This document shows positions 25,464 to 57,935 of a stretch of DNA of 64,000 nt, piece by piece (position 1 is the stretch's first letter; each line of letters starts with the position of its first letter). The notes under the pieces were generated by a model. The model worked only from the letters and a program-made list of their open reading frames with translations. It was not told the DNA's origin and made no database searches. Source of the stretch: a phage; NCBI GenBank assembly GCA_009015555.1, contig GCA_009015555.1_3613.1; one strand, given 5' to 3'. Made by a program: the position numbers and the translations under genes.

Positions 25464-28400
25464 GTGTCATCCAATACTGATATCATTGCCCTGTTGAGCA
25501 GCGATGCTGACAAGGCAGTTGACCAGATCATCGAAGACTCCAAACGTCTTCACATCGTGGTCAACGGGACGGGCACCGAGCAGGCTGTTGCAGAGGATGG
25601 GAGCTTGCTCCCGTCTGTTCGCAAAGCGCTGATCGACAACCTGTATTTCAAAACCCCACCTCTTCCCTGGAGAAACGGTGGGTCTGTCAACGAGTTCAAC
25701 CAGCTTTACTCCTTCACCGACGTAAGCGGGAACACCACTTGGTGGTATGCGCCCGGAGCTACGGTATCAAACCCGGTTGTGATGCGTGACAGCCCGATCA
25801 ATGACGGCAAGTTCAAGGTTTTCTTGGACAAAACCAACATCGCCGATATCTATGCCCCTCTGAACTCTCCGAACTTCGTCGGTAACCCCCGTGTGCCTAC
25901 CCCGGCCCCTGGCGACAACAGCCAAACCGTCCCGACAACCGGGTGGGTTCAGTCAGAGATGCAGGACCTGGAAGACCAGATCATTGCCTCTATGAAGGGT
26001 GATTTCGAAAACATCACCGTCCGTAACGATGCCGTTCTCAAAGACACGTATATCAGCGGTGAGTTCATTGTCACCAGTGATAAGTTGTCCGCTGCCAGCG
26101 CCGAAGCAACCTTCCGTCGTATTCGTGTGGTCGGCACCGCAGACAATACTGAGATCGCTTTTGAGCAGAACACCGCACCTCCAGCGGGGGCGAGCACAAA
26201 GACTAACATCAAGCCGTACACGATGTCAACAGGCATCTTGACGATTGACCAGTTGAAAGGAAAATCTGCCCAGATTGGTGATGTTGCTGTTGCCACGGAC
26301 TCCCTGAATGTCGATGGGTACATGCGTGGGGATTACCTGCATCTGGAAGGTAACAACCGAAACAGCACAACCCGCCCTCAGTTGATCGTTGATGGTATTG
26401 CAGAGATCAATACGCTGCGGGTGACTGGAACCATCGAGGGTGTAAAAGCTGATGTTGATGGCTTGGATATTCATCCTCGTAGTGTTATCATCGACGAAGG
26501 TTTGACGGTTGGCAAAGATACCTCCCTGACAGGAAAGCTGACTGTCGGCGGTACAACCAAGGTGAATAACCTGGAGGTTACTGGAACCCTGTCTGGTGTT
26601 GCTATCAGTGTTGACGGTAAAGACATCAAGCCCCGCTCTGTTAACACCGGGAACTTGGTTGCTACTGGCAACGTGCAGATCAGTGGGACGACCACTGCAA
26701 CCGGGAAGATCACAACTCAAGATCTTGAAGTGCTTGGCACACTGACAGCTAACCTCGACCTGTCCGGGTCGGATCTGAGTGTTGATAATATCAACGTTGC
26801 AGAAACCGCGACAATAAAGGATTTGGTGGTTACCGGAAAAACAACCGGGGTCAAAGGTGACGTTGATGGAACCTTGATCAAGCCTTCTTCTGTTCAGGCA
26901 ACGGGCCTTGTGTCAGCAGGTTCATTGTCTACCAATGCAAATGCCTCTATCGGGGGTAACCTGACGGTGACTGGAGAGTTCCGTCCCGCCAGCATGGAAA
27001 CAGGTGCAGTTGAGGCAGATAGTCTGGTTGTTAATGGTAACATTTCCCAGACGACAGGAACAACCTCTGTAGTCAACCTGGTTGTCACAGGAACGACAAC
27101 TGGCGTAACAGCCGATGTCAATGGTGACGACATTTTGCCTCGCTCCGTGACTACTACTGCGGGGGTTAAAGTCGGAACCACCCTCGACGTAACTGGAAAG
27201 ACTACCCTCGGAGATGTTGATTTCACTGGGGTTGTTACCGGGCTTGAACTTGATCTTTCTCAAAAGAACGTGACAGTTAAGTCAATTGCTGCTGTAGATC
27301 CTTCTGCATTTGGGGATGTGACGACAGATAATCTGACCAACAGCGAGAAGATCATCACTCAAGACATCCAAGTTCTGGGTGATATTCTGGATGCTGCGGG
27401 GAATCCTGTCAACACCTTTGATGTTACAGGCAAAGATATTCTGCCAAACAGTGTTCAATCTGCGACGTTTATTCGCGGAAAAACTCTGGACATCAGTGAC
27501 GGTTCCACCCTCCGTGGCCCTGTCGAGTTCCGTAACGGGCTGACAGTAACTCTTGGAGACATCATGTCGCCCCAAGGGAAGGCAACGTTCAACGATGTAC
27601 AGGTCAATGGTGCATTGACGGACGCTAACGGCAACGTCATCGGCTCCGTTGAAAGCATCAAGGGCAAGGACATTGAACCACGCTCCGTTGTGGCTACCGT
27701 GTCTGTACAGGCCCCTCGTCTCCAATCAACTGGGGATATTTTGGGCCAGAGCGCGACAATCACCAATAACGTCTCTGCGGGGACCTTGGGTGTTTCCGGG
27801 TTGACAAACCTGGCAGAAACTCGTGTGAATGCGAAGCTAACAGGGCAATCCACAGAGTTCGAAACTCTGCTCCTGAAGCGCGTTGCTGGTCAAGATACAC
27901 CTCGCTTGGTTGTGCAGGGGGATTCAGATCTCCAGGGGGACCTGAACGTCTCGGGGACCATTACCGGGATTGTTGACCTGACGGCTCAAGATATCCGTAT
28001 GAACAGCCTTGTGCTCGCCGAGGATCTTTCTGCAAGGAATATTACAGGATCAGGCACGGTTCAGGGCGCTAATGGAATTTTCGGCCAGTCTTCCCAGCCC
28101 ACCACCCAGTACGGTTTGCAGTCTCTTTCCAGCGCTAAGGTAGATAAAAACCTCGATGTTGGAGGAAACTTGCGGGTAACTGGGGCCATTACCGGAAGTA
28201 TGGACTTCACAGGGAAGGATATTACCCCACGGAGTGTCGCGGCGTCAGCCGGAATCGGGGCCGTGGATATCACGGCATCCGGCACGACAACGACGAAGGA
28301 CCTTGTGGTCACCGGGACGACAAGTTTTGCGGGAGACAGCGTTTTCAATGCAGGCCAGGTTAAGTCCAAGTTGTTCACCGTTGACATTGGTACTGATATC

Positions 28401-28688
28401 ACTTCAGGATCGGGGTCTTGGATTCCAGACGGGCTTCAGTCCGTTTATAACGTGACGGTTACCGCCGATACCGTTATCGGTTCCATTGCTCAGTTGCCGG
28501 GCGCGGGGACTTACTTCTTCTATATCGAGCAGGATGCTGTTGGGGGCCACACTGTGACCTTTGACCCAGCTTACCTCAAGATTGGTGATGGAGAAGTGGC
28601 TACAGCGCCAAACGCAATCTCTCTGGTCCAAGTAATCTACCGTGGTAAAGGTTCAATCTTCGACTACGTGATTCTTAACCGAGGTTAA
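25464..28688 (+). CDS. long tail fibre protein with internal about 40-aa tandem repeats
   Basis: 1074 aa; GTG start with AGGAG; conserved fibre motif NSPNFVGNPRVPTPAPGDNSQTVPTTGWV; many repeats of VTG..GV.ADVDG.DI.PRSV. Confidence 0.7.
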   Translation: MSSNTDIIALLSSDADKAVDQIIEDSKRLHIVVNGTGTEQAVAEDGSLLPSVRKALIDNLYFKTPPLPWRNGGSVNEFNQLYSFTDVSGNTTWWYAPGATVSNPVVMRDSPINDGKFKVFLDKTNIADIYAPLNSPNFVGNPRVPTPAPGDNSQTVPTTGWVQSEMQDLEDQIIASMKGDFENITVRNDAVLKDTYISGEFIVTSDKLSAASAEATFRRIRVVGTADNTEIAFEQNTAPPAGASTKTNIKPYTMSTGILTIDQLKGKSAQIGDVAVATDSLNVDGYMRGDYLHLEGNNRNSTTRPQLIVDGIAEINTLRVTGTIEGVKADVDGLDIHPRSVIIDEGLTVGKDTSLTGKLTVGGTTKVNNLEVTGTLSGVAISVDGKDIKPRSVNTGNLVATGNVQISGTTTATGKITTQDLEVLGTLTANLDLSGSDLSVDNINVAETATIKDLVVTGKTTGVKGDVDGTLIKPSSVQATGLVSAGSLSTNANASIGGNLTVTGEFRPASMETGAVEADSLVVNGNISQTTGTTSVVNLVVTGTTTGVTADVNGDDILPRSVTTTAGVKVGTTLDVTGKTTLGDVDFTGVVTGLELDLSQKNVTVKSIAAVDPSAFGDVTTDNLTNSEKIITQDIQVLGDILDAAGNPVNTFDVTGKDILPNSVQSATFIRGKTLDISDGSTLRGPVEFRNGLTVTLGDIMSPQGKATFNDVQVNGALTDANGNVIGSVESIKGKDIEPRSVVATVSVQAPRLQSTGDILGQSATITNNVSAGTLGVSGLTNLAETRVNAKLTGQSTEFETLLLKRVAGQDTPRLVVQGDSDLQGDLNVSGTITGIVDLTAQDIRMNSLVLAEDLSARNITGSGTVQGANGIFGQSSQPTTQYGLQSLSSAKVDKNLDVGGNLRVTGAITGSMDFTGKDITPRSVAASAGIGAVDITASGTTTTKDLVVTGTTSFAGDSVFNAGQVKSKLFTVDIGTDITSGSGSWIPDGLQSVYNVTVTADTVIGSIAQLPGAGTYFFYIEQDAVGGHTVTFDPAYLKIGDGEVATAPNAISLVQVIYRGKGSIFDYVILNRG
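26380..28330 (+). repeat. tandem protein-coding repeats within tail fibre gene
   Basis: Recurring G-K/D-DI-x-PRSV and VTGT motifs at roughly 120-nt periodicity. Confidence 0.5.
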
Positions 28689-28726: not shown

Positions 28727-29923
28727 ATGTTTCCTTTTGCTATTATTCCACCGTTTGTTCTTTCAGGCAAGGAAAAAATCAAGCAGTTTTCGGTTACGTC
28801 TTACGACAGTATGGTCCTGACTGATAAGGGGAACCTGTATGTTACAGGATTCAACCGGGTGGGTGAGCTTGGTGTTGGGGACACAACTAACCGAAATAAC
28901 CAATGGGTTTTGGTAATGCAGGACGTAAACTGGATTGCAAGCAACCGTGAGAAGCTGTGGGCAATTAAGAACGACGGTTCCATTTACACCCCGGATCTTC
29001 GGTCATCCAGTACAACTGCATATACTTGGCAAATCGACACGGTAGCACCTGGAAGTATTGGGGATTTGTCTGGGGATAATATCAAGGAGATTTACAGCGA
29101 CACAGAGAGCGTATATATCCTCAAAAAGGATGGTTCACTGTGGTATCTGGGAAATAACTCTAAAGGCCAAGCTGGAAACGGGGGAACTTCCTTAACCACA
29201 CGCTTTGTGAAGGTTTCAGATGGTGTGGTATCTTGGTCATCCAGTGGACCCACTGTTGTTTTCGTGAAAACAGACGGATACTTCTGGGGCTGCGGATCAA
29301 ATTCCCGAAATATCATTTCCTCTGCTGGCAGCAGTATCACAACCCCTACCCGGATGTTTAGCACCACCCACGCTGACGGAGGTGTTGTAACAGATTACAC
29401 GCTGGCCTCTGACCAAGCGTTTTTGATCAGATATAGTAATGGTAAATATCGTACCAAAGGTCTCAATATCGGACAACTTCCTTCAGGGGATGCAAGTCCA
29501 TACAATACCCTTACGGACGTTCCTGACGGATACACCCCCGGTGATGGAACGGAGCCTCTGGTAAGCAAAACAGGAGGGGTGTCGGCCTCTGGAACTTGGC
29601 CTAACTATAGTGGTCTTTTCTTCTACCATACGGGAGGGAAATTCATAGTCACTGGTCAAGCAAGCGGGAGAATTTCCGGGACCAGCCAAACCAGCGGTAC
29701 ACTCTCAAACTGGACCAATGTCGATGCGGCAAGTGACGAGATCCCATCTATCAAGGGAATGACCTTCGGACTGGGTTGGGTTGCTGCCTACAACGATACG
29801 CAGATTCTGTACTGGGGGTATACGGGAAACTCCTCTGCATATCCGGTTGTGGGATACCTAATGCCCGGACCTTCAAGGCTTGAATATGTGGCACGTTTTG
29901 CAACCCCGCCGATCGAGGCATAA
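28727..29923 (+). CDS. RCC1-like beta-propeller repeat protein (fibre-associated by position)
   Basis: 398 aa; repeated G.N..G.LG.G-type blades (GFNRVGELGVGD, GNNSKGQAGNG, WGCGSNS); RBS GGAGG. Confidence 0.5.
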   Translation: MFPFAIIPPFVLSGKEKIKQFSVTSYDSMVLTDKGNLYVTGFNRVGELGVGDTTNRNNQWVLVMQDVNWIASNREKLWAIKNDGSIYTPDLRSSSTTAYTWQIDTVAPGSIGDLSGDNIKEIYSDTESVYILKKDGSLWYLGNNSKGQAGNGGTSLTTRFVKVSDGVVSWSSSGPTVVFVKTDGYFWGCGSNSRNIISSAGSSITTPTRMFSTTHADGGVVTDYTLASDQAFLIRYSNGKYRTKGLNIGQLPSGDASPYNTLTDVPDGYTPGDGTEPLVSKTGGVSASGTWPNYSGLFFYHTGGKFIVTGQASGRISGTSQTSGTLSNWTNVDAASDEIPSIKGMTFGLGWVAAYNDTQILYWGYTGNSSAYPVVGYLMPGPSRLEYVARFATPPIEA

Positions 29924-29925
29924 TA

Positions 29926-29954
29926 AAAAGGCACCCTAACGGGTGCCTTTCTTT
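29926..29954. terminator. bidirectional rho-independent terminator at the convergence of plus and minus gene blocks
   Basis: AAGGCACCC-TAAC-GGGTGCCTT stem flanked by A-run upstream and T-run downstream. Confidence 0.6.
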
Positions 29955-29967
29955 TTATCATGACAAC

Positions 29968-31200
29968 TTAGAAGGGGATGTCATCGTCGAAATCAACTTC
30001 CGGCGGAGTCATGTCGATATGACCGTTGCTGCTTGTCGCAGGAGTCGATTGTAGAGTCTCCGGTTTAGGGTCCACCTTAGGGTCAGGCTGGGACTGTGCA
30101 GTTTGTGCCACAGAGCCACCAGAACTTTGCTCACCCTTGACGTATGCAGATACGCCCGGGACAACCTCGCTCATGAGACCACGAGCATAAGCCAACAGCT
30201 TACCAGTGATCTCTTCTGGATTGTCGTTCTCACCAACCTGGATATCACGGGTGGCGTTCAGAACAGCATGGCCCACCATCGCACCCAGATCGTAATCAGA
30301 CATACCCTTGTTAGCCGGATCATTTGCAGCGTCCAGCTTCAGATGTTTGGTGACATCATGAACAACCTTGGCTACTTCCACCACCGGAGGGATAGTCAGA
30401 CCGCTACGACGCAGGTTCAGGGCACCGTTCAGTGCATGGCCCGTTTCCATACCGGAGTTGTCCTTCTTGAAACCACCTTTGGAACCGCCCGCACCTGCAC
30501 CAGCAGAACCTTTTGGACCGTAGGCTTTGAAACCTGACAATGTACCATCCTCAGCACGTTGCCCTGCCAGGCGACCACCCACCTGAACTTGGGCGATCTG
30601 CTCTTTGTTCAGAACCACAGAGACTTCATTACCGTTCTCATCCTTCACCACAGCGCCTGTATCGCTCAGGGAGAGGATTTCTCCGTAAACCTTAGTGGTT
30701 TTGCCACCTGGGGCGTTGGACGACGCAGAGGACGTCTGAGAGCCTCCTGCATTGCCTGCCGGGGCGGCATCACGGGCACCGGATTTGTCGGTAATAACGA
30801 TCTTGGATTTCTTACCCTCCGGGGCAGAGCGTTCGTTGCCGTCACTATCAGTCCACTTACGGATCTGGACAGGAACACGAATTGCCATACCCGGCTTCAG
30901 GTCAACCCATACTTCGCCTTCTTTTACCTGATACTGGCTTTCGTATTTCATGTTCTTCACTTCGTGAGTTCCGAAGCTGATCCACACCTGATCTTCACCG
31001 TTTTTAACCAGCAGAGATGCACGGTGAGTGGCAACGATAGTCTTACCCTTGTTCGGACCCTTGTTAATGGGGGTAATTTTCGGACTGCCGTCCTCGTTGA
31101 TGCGTTTAATGTTGATACGTTCGATAGTACCAACAGCCAGGCTTACCGTAGAGTTGTCGATCGGGTTAACTACTTCGGTAATTACTTTAACATCAGACAT
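29968..31200 (-). CDS. single-stranded DNA-binding-like protein with host-SSB-type acidic C-terminal tip (…VDFDDDIPF)
   Basis: 410 aa; RBS AAGGAGAAG; C-terminal nonapeptide matches the E. coli SSB C-terminal tip DFDDDIPF; Gly/Ser-rich linkers; N-terminal region compatible with OB fold. Confidence 0.5.
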   Translation of the reverse strand: MSDVKVITEVVNPIDNSTVSLAVGTIERINIKRINEDGSPKITPINKGPNKGKTIVATHRASLLVKNGEDQVWISFGTHEVKNMKYESQYQVKEGEVWVDLKPGMAIRVPVQIRKWTDSDGNERSAPEGKKSKIVITDKSGARDAAPAGNAGGSQTSSASSNAPGGKTTKVYGEILSLSDTGAVVKDENGNEVSVVLNKEQIAQVQVGGRLAGQRAEDGTLSGFKAYGPKGSAGAGAGGSKGGFKKDNSGMETGHALNGALNLRRSGLTIPPVVEVAKVVHDVTKHLKLDAANDPANKGMSDYDLGAMVGHAVLNATRDIQVGENDNPEEITGKLLAYARGLMSEVVPGVSAYVKGEQSSGGSVAQTAQSQPDPKVDPKPETLQSTPATSSNGHIDMTPPEVDFDDDIPF

Positions 31201-31285
31201 TCACTTCTCCTTCGAGGATAAACAAGGCCCCAGAATTGAGGCCAGGACAACAGGTTACCACATTTACTCAGAATTGCAAGGTGCC

Positions 31286-31917: not shown

Positions 31918-32564
31918 CTTACTTTTGAAATTACCAGTTTTTGAACGTAGCCCTGCAACAGGGCGTAAGTTACACCACCCACATAACTACCGCCGACAGA
32001 GAGTCTCTCTCCGGCACCGAACCAGTTGGGAACAGAAAAGTTCTGAACTTCCCCGCTCACCATATTTCTCACACGGATCTGCCGAGAGTCCGGGTAAGTT
32101 TCGATCCGCAGATTAAAAACTTGGCCCTGATTACCATTGATCGAGCAACGAACATAATTTCCGCTGTTGTCTGTTGGGAACAATTGGTGCCCTCCAACCC
32201 CAACCATGCCATAATGCGCCAGTCCGGCGACGATCCTTGTGACGTAATCGCCAGAACACCACACCATCTGGGTTGCAGAAGGACTAAGGCTTTGGAAAAC
32301 AACCTCAATCACCATAGGATCTGTGGATAGATCCACTGAATACTGAGTTTGGAAATACCCTTGGCCTTGGGCAGGTATGAACTGCATGACCCTTCCAATC
32401 CCTGCAACATCGACTATCCTTGGGCCTGTGCCGACCAAAGAGAAGGTGTGGTTTTCAGACCAGTCCTTCAAAACAGTCTCGCCGAGAGATTGCCGTGTGG
32501 CATCCACGTAGAGAATGGCATCCTCTTTGCGAGATGACTTCCCTATAATCATTATCTCGTTCAT
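31914..32564 (-). CDS. N-tag family paralog E: ConA/LamG-like jelly-roll protein (N-terminus MNEIMIIGKSS)
   Basis: Track ORF 31914..32567 trimmed to ATG; LamG-like pattern; N-terminal motif shared with four other genes. Confidence 0.55.
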   Translation of the reverse strand: MNEIMIIGKSSRKEDAILYVDATRQSLGETVLKDWSENHTFSLVGTGPRIVDVAGIGRVMQFIPAQGQGYFQTQYSVDLSTDPMVIEVVFQSLSPSATQMVWCSGDYVTRIVAGLAHYGMVGVGGHQLFPTDNSGNYVRCSINGNQGQVFNLRIETYPDSRQIRVRNMVSGEVQNFSVPNWFGAGERLSVGGSYVGGVTYALLQGYVQKLVISKVS

Positions 32565-32935
32565 CAATTTCTCCGAGGTTTTAAAACACCTGATTTTGAA
32601 AGAGGGATCTCATCGGCATCTCTGCCTTTCTCTCCATCTTTCCCGTCCTTCCCGGCCTTTCCTGGTTTGCCCTCCGGGCCTGCCGGACCCGCTGGACCTG
32701 GCACATAAACATACTGCGGTTCAGTAAACGCTGCAATAAACAGCAGTATTGCCCAAGCAACACCATTCACCCACAGTGCAGGCCACATTGAAAAGAATAC
32801 CGACAGCGCCAGAATCAACATCGTATTCCGATGTTCTCTCTTGCGGGCCACGAAGTAAGGGACCAGCCAGAACAGTACAAATACCCAGGCCGAGCCTGAG
32901 AACAACGACCACATCACATCGACAAACTCTGTCAT
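32564..32935 (-). CDS. membrane protein with short collagen-like segment
   Basis: 123 aa; three hydrophobic helices then [27 protein letters not shown]. Confidence 0.5.
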   Translation of the reverse strand: MTEFVDVMWSLFSGSAWVFVLFWLVPYFVARKREHRNTMLILALSVFFSMWPALWVNGVAWAILLFIAAFTEPQYVYVPGPAGPAGPEGKPGKAGKDGKDGEKGRDADEIPLSKSGVLKPRRN

Positions 32936-42831: not shown

Positions 42832-45468
42832 TTAGTGACAATCTCCCCAGCTTGTGCCCGTCAGGTATTCACCTGTGATGTGGACTGGAGATTTCATCAT
42901 CTTAGCCGCCTGCTCCACGCACTTAACGACCATCTGCCCGACCGGGCAATGAATAATCGTGTACACGCCGTTCTCGTCCGGATCACACTTGAACTTACCT
43001 TCTTTCACACAGTGACCATCCAGAACCAGACCTTTCGCCAGGCACTGCTCAACAAAGGCTTTTGCGGTTGCCTCGTCGTTGAACTTCCATTCTTTCTTGA
43101 ACTTGTGCGGCACTTCAAGCTGGTATTCATCGTGGTAGTAGATGATACGGCGGACGCCTTCATCATACCAGCCACGCTTAACCAACTGCCAGTGCAGCAG
43201 GATACCGACCAGATCGAACAGTGCAGCACCGCCGTTCTGCTGGTATGCGTTCAGCAAGGAGTGTTTGGAGCGGGTGTAGATCTTACGACCATCGAGGCCG
43301 TAGATAAAGCGTTTCCCGGTCAACTCCCAGAACTTCTCAAGTGCTTCTTTACGACCTTTCAGACCGATGTTGCTATCCCAGAATGCGTCGATTACCGCCT
43401 GAGCCTTGTCGAGGGAAATACCCAACATGGAGGCGATCTTCGCGGCCTGGGCACCGTACATGATGCCGTATGTCACACCCTTACCTTCACCACGGGAAAC
43501 CTTCTTACCCGCCGCTTTGGTATACGCTTCAGCGTTTCGGCTGTGGGCGTCACCTGATTCCATGATCCGGAGATATGCCCCGCCGTCGAACTCGTAGGCA
43601 CCCCATGCTGCGATCATACCTTCGAGGTTTGAGCCGTCGATACCAACCTGATATTTCCCTTCAGATGCCCGGAATAAGCCACGCATCTCTTTACCCAGTA
43701 AAACCTTCTCGTCTGGTTTAGGGACGTTAGCCACGATTGTGTGCTTACGTCGCCCGGTGTTGGTGATCCCAGAATAACGCGCCGGGAGTTTACCGTCAAT
43801 ACGCAGTCGTGGGTGGTTCAGCCATCCTGTGTCAACCTTGTCTTCCTTGAGCGGGTCAAGTACAGAACGACGGTTACGCAGAGACAGCCACTTCACGATC
43901 TGCTTTGCCATATGACCGTCAACCTTCTCCAAGTTCGGACACAGGCCGCTCATATCTTTCAACTGCGGAGACGTAGGCAGGCCACGGGCCTTACGTCGCA
44001 ACAGCTTGTACATCTTCTCTTTGTCCTGCCACGCCTTCGGGGTGATGCCGAGGTATTCCAGAATAAGATCCCGGTATTCAACTTGGTCCAACTGCTCAAT
44101 GTACTCACGGACAAGCCCATCGACCTCGTTATCGGGGCGTTGTTTCTTAAACTGGTCCTTCGTCACATCCTTACTGCGCCACAGGGTTGGCTTCCAGCCT
44201 GCATCACGGATAAGGAACTTCTTCACGTCATCTTGGTTACCGATACGCATCGGAATCATAATGTCCGGCATGGTTTGGTTCTTCAGATCCAACATTGCCC
44301 GTGCCATGTCCTCTGGTGAGAGAGGGATCAGGGTCGTTTGCTTGTTGTTCTGGTCCCGGATAAACTGCGGCATCGCTGCCTCATCCTCGACACCATGCTC
44401 ATTGCAATACTTGATTGCTGCCGCCGTCAGGCTACCATCGGCCTTGAAAGACTTCGCCGGGGGACCCTTAAAGTCGAGTGCCTCCCAGTTGACATTATAC
44501 CCCAACTTCTCCAGCCACTTCCACCCAGTCCCGGACAAAGATCCATCGCCCTTGAACGGCTTAGAAGGGAAGGTCGGTTGTGCTGACTTCGCCATCTCTT
44601 TCTTCGGGAGATGGGGTTCAACATCTCCCTCGATCTCTCGCATCATTTGATCGATACGGTCACGAAGTTTAAGTGCCGCCTCTTCGTCGAAAGATACGCC
44701 CTGAATCTCCTGCTCAATCATCAGGTAGTCTGTCAGCATACCACGACGCATGGCATTCTTCCAGTTGATCAGCTTGTACTTCTTGGCGTCCTTATCCTTA
44801 TCTTCATCCTTGTACATGAAGCGTTTGTCATCTACCAGCTTGCCGTCGCAGGCGATCTCCTCCATGAGGGCCGTCCACACCATTTCGTTGATGATAACGT
44901 CTTCGATGATACGATCACAATACTTCCACAGCGGCAGGCCACGCCAGTCTTCGATTGCCACTTTCTGGTTGGCAACACGCATACCCCACGCCTCTAAGCC
45001 GTGAGGGCCGACAGGTTTCATCTTCCCGGTGACCGGGTTCTTTACCATCTCCGGACACCCACGAGGAAGCGGTCGGTCTGGATAAAGAGTTCGAGACATT
45101 GACAGAGTGTCGAACAGGTTAACCTGCTTGCCGTTCAGGGTGCCCATGCACTTAGGGTCGCCGAACATATCATACTGTGTTCCCAACATCTTTTTAAACA
45201 GACGAAGGTCGTAGCCGAACAGGTTGTGGATCGCGATGGATTTAGGCTCCGTCTTGAACCAATCGTTCAACTCCTCAAAGGTACGAATTTTGAAATTCTT
45301 GCCCTTCGATTGGATAAATTTCAACGCCTGATCGTACCCTTCCCGGTTGGGGTCGAGGAAGATATTCCAGTTATCGACCTTATACTCCTTGAACAGGATC
45401 ACGTGAAGCTGGTCTACTTCTTCGAGCAGACCATTGGCTTCAGCATCCCCTACAAACAACCCTTTCAT
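42832..45468 (-). CDS. DNA polymerase, family A, with 3'-5' exonuclease domain
   Basis: Track ORF 42832..45495 starts at GTG; ATG at 45468 has AAGGAG; N-terminal exonuclease motif VGDAEANGL; C-terminal KxxxYG..YG region and HDE motif typical of family A polymerases. Confidence 0.85.
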   Translation of the reverse strand: MKGLFVGDAEANGLLEEVDQLHVILFKEYKVDNWNIFLDPNREGYDQALKFIQSKGKNFKIRTFEELNDWFKTEPKSIAIHNLFGYDLRLFKKMLGTQYDMFGDPKCMGTLNGKQVNLFDTLSMSRTLYPDRPLPRGCPEMVKNPVTGKMKPVGPHGLEAWGMRVANQKVAIEDWRGLPLWKYCDRIIEDVIINEMVWTALMEEIACDGKLVDDKRFMYKDEDKDKDAKKYKLINWKNAMRRGMLTDYLMIEQEIQGVSFDEEAALKLRDRIDQMMREIEGDVEPHLPKKEMAKSAQPTFPSKPFKGDGSLSGTGWKWLEKLGYNVNWEALDFKGPPAKSFKADGSLTAAAIKYCNEHGVEDEAAMPQFIRDQNNKQTTLIPLSPEDMARAMLDLKNQTMPDIMIPMRIGNQDDVKKFLIRDAGWKPTLWRSKDVTKDQFKKQRPDNEVDGLVREYIEQLDQVEYRDLILEYLGITPKAWQDKEKMYKLLRRKARGLPTSPQLKDMSGLCPNLEKVDGHMAKQIVKWLSLRNRRSVLDPLKEDKVDTGWLNHPRLRIDGKLPARYSGITNTGRRKHTIVANVPKPDEKVLLGKEMRGLFRASEGKYQVGIDGSNLEGMIAAWGAYEFDGGAYLRIMESGDAHSRNAEAYTKAAGKKVSRGEGKGVTYGIMYGAQAAKIASMLGISLDKAQAVIDAFWDSNIGLKGRKEALEKFWELTGKRFIYGLDGRKIYTRSKHSLLNAYQQNGGAALFDLVGILLHWQLVKRGWYDEGVRRIIYYHDEYQLEVPHKFKKEWKFNDEATAKAFVEQCLAKGLVLDGHCVKEGKFKCDPDENGVYTIIHCPVGQMVVKCVEQAAKMMKSPVHITGEYLTGTSWGDCH

Positions 45469-45557
45469 ACTCTCTCCTTTTTGGCATACCTCCACTCAGG
45501 ATAGCCCAATGCCTCGTAAAGATCAACCTATCAATACCCGTCCTTGGGTGAATAATC

Positions 45558-52559: not shown

Positions 52560-54632
52560 TTAAAATGGGCAGTCATCATCCATTTCATCAGGCATGTCCG
52601 GGACTTCCGGGATGTCTGGGATAACGACAGGTTTTGTTTGAACAGGCTCCGGAGTTTCCTCCTTCGTCTGTTCCTCTTCCGGAACTTCCAGGCCCAGATC
52701 CTGCTGTTCAACCTGCTGTTCCTTGGCCTCTTCCTGTGCTGCCAGGAACTGCTCGTCCGCCGGAGGGATGTCATCATCCGTCAGGTCAGATCCGGTCTTA
52801 TCTTGGTTCTCCGGAGACAGAGGTTGTGCTGCACTTCCCGTCGGCTCCTGATAAGAATCGTTGCTCGGATCATGTTCCGGGTGGACCGCATACCACTCAC
52901 GGAGAGTTTCGTATGGACTGTCCAAGAACCCCTCTGGCGGTTCCAGATAATCACCTGTGTCGATGTCGTAGAACACCGGGAACTTACCAGCACGACCGTG
53001 CTTACGGTCATCCAACAGCACAAACCAAGAGGTGTTGCGCTGCTTCATTGGAAGCTCCGGGTCCTTATTACGCTCAATACCTACCATGTAGTAGGTGTTA
53101 CGCATCATTGCACGGGAACCAGCAAACTGTGCCGACTGAACCTGACCACCGAACTCGTGAGGCTTACCAGTCTCCGGCTTGTTCAGGTGACAGAAGCAAC
53201 AATACCAGAAGCCCAGTTCCTTCGCAAGTTTGGAGATTTCATCAGAGAAACGCTCCAACTCCACGTTCGCTTCGGATGCAGACATACCCTGCACCAGACG
53301 AGTGATCGGGTCAATGAAGATGTCCTCACAACCCTCTACGATAACCGCATGGCGGATAGCGCCCTTAACCTCGTCCCATACTGCACGACCGTAGTTGTTG
53401 TAGTAGATGATGTTGTCACCTACCTTGTCGGTAGCCTCAATCAGTTCTTCCTGTTTGAAGTAACCACGCTGACCCTCGAAGACTTCCTCACCCCAGATGT
53501 CCCGGTAAGTTCCGTCCTCTTGTGGGATCATCACCTTCTCTGCGTTCACGAAATCCTTGTGGTACAGCTTACCAGCGACCTTCTTACACGTGATCTCGTT
53601 CTCTTCCTCGAACTTGAACACTGCGGCCTTACGGCCCTCTGTACCGATGATGTGCTCCACAAGCTGGTTAAGCCACTCGGACTTACCCATCTTAACCCCG
53701 GCACCGACGAACATACCTTCCCCGAGACGACGGCCCAACGTCAGGCGCGTCATTGTAGGCCAAGGCCATTTCTTCCCGAGTTTAGGGATCTCGTGTGCCT
53801 TCTCACGGAACTGAGAGTAGGTCGCAAAGCCGTCCGGCACGTACTCTTTAGGCTTCATCGCTGCCCAGAAAAGCTGCTGCGCCAAGCCCTTATTGTACAT
53901 GTCACAAGGGTCCATGTCTTCAGGGATATCGACGACTTTCATCTGTGGGATGACAGAATACACTGCCGCCACGGCATCTTTACCCTTCATGATACCCTTG
54001 GCTTTCTCAGTTTCGTTCGCCCGGTCGGCGTCGAAAGCCACAATGATCTCTTCGAACTTACTCAGGAGCTTATAGTTGTTCTTCTGAGACAGGTTCTGTA
54101 CTGCGTTGGATGTGCCGTTGGAGATTGACACAACCGTGAAGTTAGGCTTACGGGCATTGCCGTCCTTCGATTTGTAGTTCTCGCGGAGAACCTGCCACAA
54201 AATCGCTGCATCGTACTCACCTTCGGTGATGAAGATCATACGCTTGGACGACTTGTTGGCACCTTCCAGGCCAAACAGATCACAGGCTACTGACTGGAAG
54301 CCGATGGTGCTGAAGTGGCCCTTCTGCTGCTTAGGGATGGTCAGGTCGCGCTTCTTAAAACCAACGATCTTTCCTTCCAAAGTATATGGAAAATAATGCG
54401 CTTCCGGCGTCATACCGTCCTTAGCAGACAGTTTTGTGCGAATACCGAAGCGTTCAGCCGTCTTCTCATCAATCCCGCGCTCTGGGATCGCCTTGAAGGG
54501 ATACGTCTTTACATCTTCAACTGTCTCTTCAACTCGCTGCACTCCGCCTCCAAAACCACGGGTGGTTGACGCCTTCGGGTTGGTGTACCCCGTCTTATAT
54601 CCACCGAACAACCCTTCACCAAATGTGCTCAC
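52560..54632 (-). CDS. DNA primase-helicase (TOPRIM primase domain fused to DnaB-like helicase)
   Basis: 690 aa; GTG start preceded by GGGAGG; FITEGEYDA TOPRIM-type motif; P-loop GAGVKMGKSE in C-terminal half. Confidence 0.75.
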   Translation of the reverse strand: MSTFGEGLFGGYKTGYTNPKASTTRGFGGGVQRVEETVEDVKTYPFKAIPERGIDEKTAERFGIRTKLSAKDGMTPEAHYFPYTLEGKIVGFKKRDLTIPKQQKGHFSTIGFQSVACDLFGLEGANKSSKRMIFITEGEYDAAILWQVLRENYKSKDGNARKPNFTVVSISNGTSNAVQNLSQKNNYKLLSKFEEIIVAFDADRANETEKAKGIMKGKDAVAAVYSVIPQMKVVDIPEDMDPCDMYNKGLAQQLFWAAMKPKEYVPDGFATYSQFREKAHEIPKLGKKWPWPTMTRLTLGRRLGEGMFVGAGVKMGKSEWLNQLVEHIIGTEGRKAAVFKFEEENEITCKKVAGKLYHKDFVNAEKVMIPQEDGTYRDIWGEEVFEGQRGYFKQEELIEATDKVGDNIIYYNNYGRAVWDEVKGAIRHAVIVEGCEDIFIDPITRLVQGMSASEANVELERFSDEISKLAKELGFWYCCFCHLNKPETGKPHEFGGQVQSAQFAGSRAMMRNTYYMVGIERNKDPELPMKQRNTSWFVLLDDRKHGRAGKFPVFYDIDTGDYLEPPEGFLDSPYETLREWYAVHPEHDPSNDSYQEPTGSAAQPLSPENQDKTGSDLTDDDIPPADEQFLAAQEEAKEQQVEQQDLGLEVPEEEQTKEETPEPVQTKPVVIPDIPEVPDMPDEMDDDCPF

Positions 54633-56381: not shown

Positions 56382-56577
56382 CAGTTTCGAAACAGTAGAA
56401 GCCCTCGCATACCGTGCCGTCTTGGCGGGTAAAGTTGACGATGACCTCATCGTCATCGGCGTCAACAGAGACTACGACGCCCTTATCCCCCGGACTAACC
56501 CCGTCGAGGCTATAATCTTCCAGATTTTCCGGATTGAAGATAACCTTTTCGCCTACCGCTACCAGTTTGTTGCTCAT
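56359..56577 (-). CDS. hypothetical acidic protein
   Basis: 72-aa ORF with RBS GGAGGTGAGG; ATGA overlap with helicase stop. Confidence 0.5.
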   Translation of the reverse strand: MSNKLVAVGEKVIFNPENLEDYSLDGVSPGDKGVVVSVDADDDEVIVNFTRQDGTVCEGFYCFETDVEVCGD

Positions 56578-57935
56578 ACCTCACCTCCAAAAATTTCAGG
56601 GAATGTCTCATGATAGAACTTACGGACACCTTGGTCAACAATAATGTCCTTCACACGTAGGCGCTTCATCAGGCGAAGACCTTCGGTGCTCGTCGCTCGG
56701 GACAGCATAACATAGGCTTGGCCCGGCGTGAAGGTGCCGAAACCTAAATCAATGTTCACTTTACCCAGCGTCAGGCCCTGTGCTTTGTGTCCGGTGATAG
56801 CATAGCCCAATTTGAACGGGAACTGCAAGTATTTCCCGATCTCTTTGTCAACCAGTACGGTCTGCTTCTCCATCACCTTGACAGTCTGCTTGGTGCCGTC
56901 TTCCAGTTCGATCTCCTTTTCAACCTGGACCATCTTTTCTTCCGGGACCTGTGTCACGTTGGTCCACTCGTACTTGCCGATGTGGATCGGCTTTCCGTCA
57001 ATGTCCACGATGACAAAAGTCTTGGCGATTTTCTTGATGATCCCCACCGTACCGTTGACGTAATCTGGCTCCTTTTTCTTCTGGTCGTTGTCGTTAACAA
57101 CAATCATGACCTTCAGACCTTCTTTCAGGTTCAGAACTTCGTTGACCGGACGCTCCGGGAACTCGCCCGAGATCTTGGCTTCGAACACATGAGGCTGGGC
57201 CTTGATCTTCTCAAACTCCCGCTGGTTGATTTCCTCTGCGAGTTTGTTGGTGGTCGTTAAAGTCACCGCCCCTGGCAGGGCCGGGCCGAAACAGTGTTGG
57301 TTGAAGTAATCAACCGCCGCCCCGACGTTATTACCCACACGGATGTTGTTCAGGTGTTGAGCGAACACAGGATCAGACTGGCGGTGTACCTTCGGAAGAT
57401 ACGCATTGGTAAAATCCAGTTGGTTCCAAATATCCGAACCGAACGGGATTTCATTGCCGTGCAGTTCACGGAACATCGCCGTCTCTTCGCGCTTCAGAAC
57501 AGGCTTGATCTGGAAACCGTCGCCAAACATGATGACCTGAAGGCCACCGAAAGGCTTGTTTACCTTGCGGTGATAACGCAGCTTCATGTCGATCTCCCGC
57601 AGCTTGTCGCTACGAATCATGGAGATTTCGTCGAACACGATAGCGTCCAGCGCATTAGATGCCATCAGCATCGCAGGCTTCTTGGACTTCGCTTTGTAAT
57701 CTTCCTTGGTGGTAACACCAAACGTCAGACCAAAAGCCTTGTGAGCGGTGATCCCTGAAATGTTCAGCGCCGCAATCCCTGTCGGTGCAACGAACAGGAA
57801 ACTGTCAGCGAAGAACTCACGCAGAGTGGCAATCATCAAGCTCTTGCCAGATCCACCTGGCCCGGTGATGAACACGTTATCACCCGCCATGATGGCTCGC
57901 ATTGCTTCTTCGTTACCAATTACTGTTTTACCCAT
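56574..57935 (-). CDS. SF1B DNA helicase (PIF1/RecD/Dda-like)
   Basis: 453 aa; Walker A GPGGSGKS, Walker B VFDEISM. Confidence 0.8.
   Translation of the reverse strand: MGKTVIGNEEAMRAIMAGDNVFITGPGGSGKSLMIATLREFFADSFLFVAPTGIAALNISGITAHKAFGLTFGVTTKEDYKAKSKKPAMLMASNALDAIVFDEISMIRSDKLREIDMKLRYHRKVNKPFGGLQVIMFGDGFQIKPVLKREETAMFRELHGNEIPFGSDIWNQLDFTNAYLPKVHRQSDPVFAQHLNNIRVGNNVGAAVDYFNQHCFGPALPGAVTLTTTNKLAEEINQREFEKIKAQPHVFEAKISGEFPERPVNEVLNLKEGLKVMIVVNDNDQKKKEPDYVNGTVGIIKKIAKTFVIVDIDGKPIHIGKYEWTNVTQVPEEKMVQVEKEIELEDGTKQTVKVMEKQTVLVDKEIGKYLQFPFKLGYAITGHKAQGLTLGKVNIDLGFGTFTPGQAYVMLSRATSTEGLRLMKRLRVKDIIVDQGVRKFYHETFPEIFGGEV

Follow-up and report, generated by a model that had tools for sequence, protein, structure and literature searches.

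The gene considered here lies on the minus strand of a 64,000-nucleotide stretch of phage DNA (GCA_009015555.1, contig GCA_009015555.1_3613.1; hereafter the window) and encodes a protein of 410 residues whose C terminus copies that of SSB, Escherichia coli's single-stranded-DNA-binding protein. An earlier note, made from the letters of the window alone, had called the open reading frame (ORF) and pointed to the shared tip, and both stand: translation gives a 410-residue frame that closes with the stop codon TAA at 29968–29970, the protein ends in ...NGHIDMTPPEVDFDDDIPF (final stretch PPEVDFDDDIPF), and its last eight residues, DFDDDIPF, are also the last eight of E. coli SSB, which ends in ...PSNEPPMDFDDDIPF. 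Given the amino-acid composition of the window, the chance of meeting DFDDDIPF at any one C terminus is 2e-11, or about 1e-8 expected tips over the 600 stop-to-stop segments of the window. The looser motif [DE][DE][ILV]PF has this ORF as its sole carrier in the ~164 kb searched, namely the window plus positions 1–50 kb and 100–150 kb of the Cronobacter phage PBES 02 genome; these partly overlap, cover ~142 kb of the ~150-kb genome and leave out 50–58 kb. The C-terminal tip is a real, non-random feature. The protein as a whole has 99% identity with a 'hypothetical protein' of PBES 02 and 98% with CR3_gp035, both from ~150-kb lytic myoviruses of the genus Certrevirus (Vequintavirinae). In PHROGs it falls into phrog_4477, a family of 'unknown function' (E 6e-168, residues 4–410), and the 120 homologues found all come from phages or metagenomes.

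What the protein visibly shares with host SSB is confined to its end. An hhalign comparison of the family profile with E. coli SSB is limited to the last 14 residues (probability 95%), and the NCBIfam SSB model PRK09010 matches only the tail, residues 356–410, with 22 bits against a cutoff of 260. Among 53 relatives, down to 30% identity, G104, D247, G254, G306, G310, P409 and F410 never change, and at least 90% keep D403, D405, D407 and I408. The stretch that leads from the helical domain to the tip, by contrast, is free to change in both length and sequence, a pattern that marks selection on the tip itself. Recent capture of the 3' end of a host ssb gene was considered and rejected: blastn matched the last 153 nt of the gene to none of 5,426 E. 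coli genomes, so the tip was not recently taken from host ssb. Read-through into a hidden extension was rejected as well, since a terminator follows directly after the stop codon and nothing beyond the tip is therefore encoded in the window protein.

The AlphaFold2 model, built on an alignment of 53 sequences, consists of confident domains joined by disordered linkers (Table 1). An OB fold in the N-terminal region, the presence or absence of which the earlier note had put to structure prediction, is indeed predicted there, in the beta-rich residues 1–140. The Gly/Ser-rich linkers that the note had placed before the tip exist, as inter-domain linkers (141–168 and 228–246); directly ahead of the tip, however, lie 47 acidic residues rich in Q, S, P, T and A. 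This tail (356–402) has a net charge of −4, with a predicted local distance difference test score (pLDDT) below 50 for 361–387 and of ~65 for 391–402.

Table 1. The SSB-like gene, the parts of its product, and other features of the window.
Feature	Position	Strand	Basis or remark
Whole gene: 410-aa non-canonical SSB-like protein	29968..31200	minus	phrog_4477; orthologue of Bas52_0087
N-terminal OB-fold domain (predicted), residues 1–140	30781..31200	minus	near-invariant G24, T58, H59, G104
Linker 1, disordered, G/S/A-rich, residues 141–168	30697..30780	minus	pLDDT <50 for 148–165; composition
Small five-strand beta-barrel, residues 169–227	30520..30696	minus	AlphaFold2 model
Linker 2, G/A/S/K-rich, residues 228–246	30463..30519	minus	AlphaFold2 model; composition
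Five-helix domain, residues 247–355	30136..30462	minus	AlphaFold2 model (helices at 249–354); conservation; escape positions
Disordered acidic Q/S/P/T/A-rich tail, residues 356–402	29995..30135	minus	pLDDT, charge, variability
C-terminal tip DFDDDIPF, residues 403–410	29971..29994	minus	translation, conservation, hhalign, PRK09010
Apparent bidirectional intrinsic terminator hairpin, 10-bp stem, A-/T-run flanks	29927..29950		between SSB-like and RCC1-repeat genes
5' leader: terminator-like hairpin (31226–31243), then GGAG ribosome-binding site	31205..31243	minus	
Family-A DNA polymerase (PolA)	42832–45495	minus	minus-strand block
DnaB-like primase/helicase	52560–54632	minus	minus-strand block
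PIF1/Dda-like helicase	56574–57935	minus	minus-strand block

The small beta-barrel is probably a second, minimal OB/SH3-like domain. In BFVD, once the family's own members are set aside, most of the next ~40 matches are annotated as phage SSBs. One element of the N-terminal domain, the hairpin IRKWTDSDGNER (residues 113–124; 30859–30894, minus strand), resembles the L45 hairpin of E. coli SSB, TRKWTDQSGQDR, and TIGR00621 has a sub-threshold match at this hairpin, at equivalent model positions (15.5 bits vs a cutoff of 53.95, E 0.016); this weak echo hints that the OB domain may be a true but very distant homologue of SSB. Searches with the 410-residue protein returned no Pfam family, even at E ≤ 1, and no PDB match by sequence. 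With both searches empty and hhalign restricted to the C-terminal residues, homology to E. coli SSB at the level of sequence was rejected. Because the Pfam and TIGR00621 profile tests fail, the window protein is not a canonical SSB, and the data support placing it outside the canonical bacterial family, in a phage-specific family with a presumed SSB-like function. With E. coli and other enterobacterial SSBs (PF00436, TIGR00621) it shares a predicted OB domain and a disordered linker that ends in the acidic D-D-D-I-P-F tip; unlike the 178-residue E. coli protein, it has 410 residues and adds the beta-barrel and a helical domain of 109 residues, and its oligomerisation probably does not use the OB tetramer interface. 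Conservation is highest in the helical domain, where ETGHALNGA and GAMVGHAVLNA stand out as motifs; for the family as a whole they read ETGHA.N and G(A)xVGxAVLNA. A sequence search of the PDB gave no relative of this domain, and a fold search gave nothing above generic helical bundles.

The gene is the last of a long minus-strand replication block, and the same placement at the end of the block, shortly downstream of PolA, is found in the Vequintavirus Bas59, the Phapecoctavirus Mt1B1_P17 and PBES 02. The Mt1B1_P17 homologue (~310 aa) is annotated 'single-stranded DNA-binding protein', and a few GenBank records independently label members of the family SSB. A second SSB in the genome was rejected on two grounds: phmmer --max with E. 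coli SSB, T4 gp32 and T7 gp2.5 gave nothing below E=1 among stop-to-stop segments of at least 50 residues in the ~142 of ~150 kb, and no SSB is annotated in parts 1–50, 79–98 and 100–150 kb of PBES 02. With no other SSB found and a replication context, the 410-residue protein is therefore the best candidate for the replication and recombination SSB of this phage. We favour, with a probability of roughly 0.6, the reading that it is the phage's own SSB on a non-canonical scaffold. The SSB-like interpretation of the earlier note thereby gains support from the predicted fold and the phage-SSB matches in BFVD, from the replication block and the failure to find another SSB, and from conservation and a published orthologue. 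The protein might instead be an adaptor that does not bind DNA, its OB-like barrels holding some other ligand or protein and its tip being no more than an SSB-like tag. The lack of any matching Pfam family would suit such an adaptor, but we consider it very improbable: the match lists consist overwhelmingly of ssDNA binders, and the gene context, the independent SSB labels and the lack of another SSB in the parts of the genome searched all speak against it.

If the protein is the phage's SSB, the N-terminal OB fold, probably together with the small barrel, would bind single-stranded DNA (ssDNA) arising in phage replication and recombination, as its fold suggests. The helical domain would most likely serve self-association or cooperativity and so replace the OB–OB tetramer interface of bacterial SSB, and the disordered acidic tail of 47 residues would hold out DFDDDIPF, an exact copy of the host tip. 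Phage ssDNA coated in this way could dock host ExoI/SbcB, RecQ, RecJ, PriA, Pol III chi, DnaG, Ung and others. Judging by the identity of the motif and the strong purifying selection on it, the phage tip would unavoidably compete with host SSB for these clients; phage DNA probably uses, or competes for, host repair and replication enzymes via the tip. Considerably more than a dozen enzymes of bacterial genome maintenance dock on the SSB C-terminal tip, which is also a drug target. With an exact copy of it on an unrelated-looking SSB scaffold, a lytic enterobacterial phage offers a natural means of finding out which host clients viruses depend on or have to neutralise.

Experimental data on the family come entirely from Bas52_0087 and none from the window phage. 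We located bas52_0087 in Escherichia phage RudolfGeigy/Bas52 (QXV84166.1); its product is 28% identical to the window protein over residues 4–410, the full length (E 7e-37). The two share the order of domains, the invariant residues of the helical domain, the C terminus FDDDIPF and the position downstream of PolA, whereas Bas52 is a Vequintavirus and the window phage a Certrevirus. Bas52_0087 has been described as SSB-like, with two OB folds, a disordered C terminus and a conserved C-tip, and was shown genetically to be the phage trigger that the DRT10/UG17 reverse-transcriptase defence needs in order to be activated (bioRxiv 10.64898/2026.04.29.721553). In the same work, host ExoI (SbcB) suppresses DRT10 toxicity and SbcB overexpression weakens the restriction of Bas52; the authors propose that Bas52_0087 competes with or displaces SbcB; the DRT10 escape mutants, D252V and Y351C, were placed by them at a predicted oligomer interface (bioRxiv 10.64898/2026.04.29.721553). 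The two options raised in the earlier note, replacement of host SSB with its interaction hub kept or competition for its clients, would amount to this same proposal. In the preferred reading, it is this activity that DRT10 senses in the Bas52 orthologue, with host ExoI setting the threshold, as the genetics of the preprint show for the orthologue only.

Mapped onto the window protein, D252 falls on D247, the invariant residue that caps the N terminus of helix 1, and Y351 on S351 in the last helix; both escape positions therefore belong to the helical domain and lie outside the OB folds and the tip. That both independent escapers are missense changes in this conserved domain, with no knock-outs among them, fits an essential gene. 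The helical domain is the family-defining module and the site of the escape mutations. An SSB-like protein with a conserved C-tip has thus already been described for the orthologue, and SSBs with a host tip on mobile elements are already known; new here are the delineation of the helical domain as family-defining, a region that the preprint does not treat as a separate domain of this kind, and a family broader than reported.

Several points weigh against the protein being the phage's own SSB with a host-docking tip. Binding of ssDNA, oligomerisation and client binding by members of the family are predictions, and the T4 gp32 and T7 gp2.5 sequences used as phmmer queries were entered by hand. 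Expressed alone, Bas52_0087 neither harms E. coli nor triggers DRT10 (bioRxiv 10.64898/2026.04.29.721553), so that massive titration of host SSB clients is not evident. Lastly, 17 of 122 relatives continue for 15–16 residues past the tip, which leaves the carboxylate of the terminal Phe not free; this extension slightly weakens a simple equation of the tip with docking of host clients.

The harmlessness of the lone orthologue, both to the cell and towards DRT10, also counts against the idea that the protein is primarily a decoy or hub hijacker, sequestering or redirecting ExoI, RecJ and RecQ to protect phage ssDNA ends or recombination intermediates, with DNA coating a secondary matter. The exact host tip on a long flexible tail speaks for such a decoy, the preprint's proposal of competition with SbcB and the effect of extra SbcB on DRT10 restriction point the same way, and a phage with its own polymerase and helicases may not need the clients of the host replisome. 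A conserved folded scaffold of 350 residues with an OB fold, however, far exceeds what a decoy peptide requires, and no other SSB was found in the parts of the genome searched. We therefore regard a primarily decoy function as unlikely, although the role is compatible with that of a phage SSB and does not exclude it.

The tip could also be meant for the phage itself, docking its polymerase, helicase or recombinase and/or bending back onto the OB fold to auto-regulate the binding of DNA, with the identity to the host motif due to shared ancestry or exchange of a tail cassette. T7 gp2.5 and T4 gp32, whose tails bind cognate phage partners, are precedents. The tail of the HK620 SSB, NDYPPF, likewise binds a phage partner, Sak4 (PMC5928155). 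The tails of all three differ from that of the window protein in not being host-tip copies, and these proteins lack the helical domain; gp2.5 and gp32 moreover show no sequence similarity by phmmer to the window protein, which has no zinc finger of the gp32 kind. A purely internal role would agree with the tip being internal in 14% of relatives and with a tail cassette (tip plus optional extension) common to this scaffold and a canonical lambdoid-prophage SSB. An eight-out-of-eight match to the host motif kept down to 30% identity, on the other hand, is hard to explain without host pockets, or phage proteins that read host SSB; the DNA shows no sign that the tip was recently acquired from E. 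coli ssb, and there is a genetic link to ExoI, a client of host SSB. On balance we think an exclusively phage-internal tip improbable, and that the phage SSB docks host clients remains the better account.

The extension itself, which the window protein lacks and the Bas52_0087 preprint does not mention, follows ...DIPF with the consensus A[PY]xGL[QPM]Y..HAI[YH]x[LIVM], also written APxGLQYxxHAIYxL. Example carriers are P0028, P0061, P0070, P0075 and P0105; an extended peptide reads ...DIPFAPIGLQYPNHAIYVL. Extended relatives are scattered over many subclades, as defined by a crude grouping on N-terminal sequence. A profile search with the extended tails found a matching cassette on SSB-annotated C termini in Proteus, Salmonella, E. 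coli, Klebsiella and Providencia (loci L004:4153-4200 and L008:5695-6231). One of these carriers, beyond doubt a canonical SSB, lies among the recombination genes of a lambdoid prophage, where it is interrupted by a nonsense codon. In solved complexes of the SSB C terminus the terminal Phe contributes its free carboxylate, so that a tip followed by the extension should be masked or re-purposed, raising the question whether the tip is always a free C terminus. The extension strings had no match in a full-text search of the searchable library, and the 15-residue extension is apparently new to the literature. Temperate phages, prophages and plasmids carry canonical SSBs, such as the Proteus lambdoid-prophage SSB at L008, that resemble the window protein in being mobile-element genes with a host-type tip, some of them sharing the extension with its relatives; the SSBs of P1 and F are further mobile-element SSBs that keep the host tip. 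They differ in being true PF00436 proteins of ~170–180 residues, whereas the window protein is an unrelated-looking scaffold from a large lytic myovirus.

How far the family extends is best seen from its helical domain. An exhaustive hidden Markov model search with this domain alone reached 184 cluster representatives out of 1.84 billion. In all of them an N-domain comes first, the helical domain second and the tail last; most have ~275 residues and lack the middle barrel. Among 140 superfamily members examined, nearly all complete ones finish with an acidic tail and an SSB-type tip. The tip variants (P0230–P0369) include DDDIPF, DDDLPF, DDDVPF, DDDLPW and GLDF, some with one residue more (for example ...IPFN), which suggests that they match different host SSB tips; for the DDDLPF and DDDLPW members, cultured phages with informative hosts yielded no close relatives. 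When 125 superfamily members were scanned against Pfam, 29 families were matched, and PF00436 is not among the 25 listed. One of the listed families was matched by two members and the rest by one each, and we regard these scattered matches as noise or chimeras.

Taken further, and only tentatively, the family could form a distinct and widespread class of phage SSBs that combines an OB fold with a helical self-association domain and an exchangeable, host-matched tail cassette. The host tip would then hijack, or compete for, ExoI and other clients on phage ssDNA, guard defences such as DRT10 would detect the perturbation, and the extension A-P-x-G-L-Q-Y-x-x-H-A-I-Y-x-L would mask or supplement the tip of certain relatives and of canonical SSBs from prophages. 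We hold this possible rather than probable. If true, the extension would be a new regulatory layer in SSB-hub biology. An exact host tip on a phage SSB-like protein also helps to explain why phage SSBs recur as immune triggers (retrons, AbpAB and now DRT10). On the practical side, names can be given to hundreds of gene products annotated as 'hypothetical proteins' in Vequintavirinae, Stephanstirmvirinae and phages related to them.

The ATG start lies eight bases downstream of GGAG, and the leader hairpin GGCCTCAATTCTGGGGCC, followed by a T-run, stands ~25 nt upstream of the start codon; it could act as an attenuator, mark a site of RNA processing or serve as a translational operator. At its other end the gene converges on the tail-fibre genes across the terminator. 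The nearest of these neighbours is a 398-aa protein (28727–29923, plus strand) with RCC1-like beta-propeller repeats (PF25390, PF13540), which directly follows a tail fibre of 1074 aa (25464–28688, plus strand) with about seven copies of a 'VTG..GV.ADVDG.DI.PRSV' unit. On the minus strand, a 123-aa ORF (32564–32935) begins with a hydrophobic, membrane-like half and continues into a collagen-like G-X-Y run. A last observation concerns database records: many 'Campylobacter phage' entries MG0656xx (host C. jejuni) hold genes of Vequintavirus or Phapecoctavirus type that share 97% identity with their counterparts in E. coli phages, and the host labels of these entries look doubtful.
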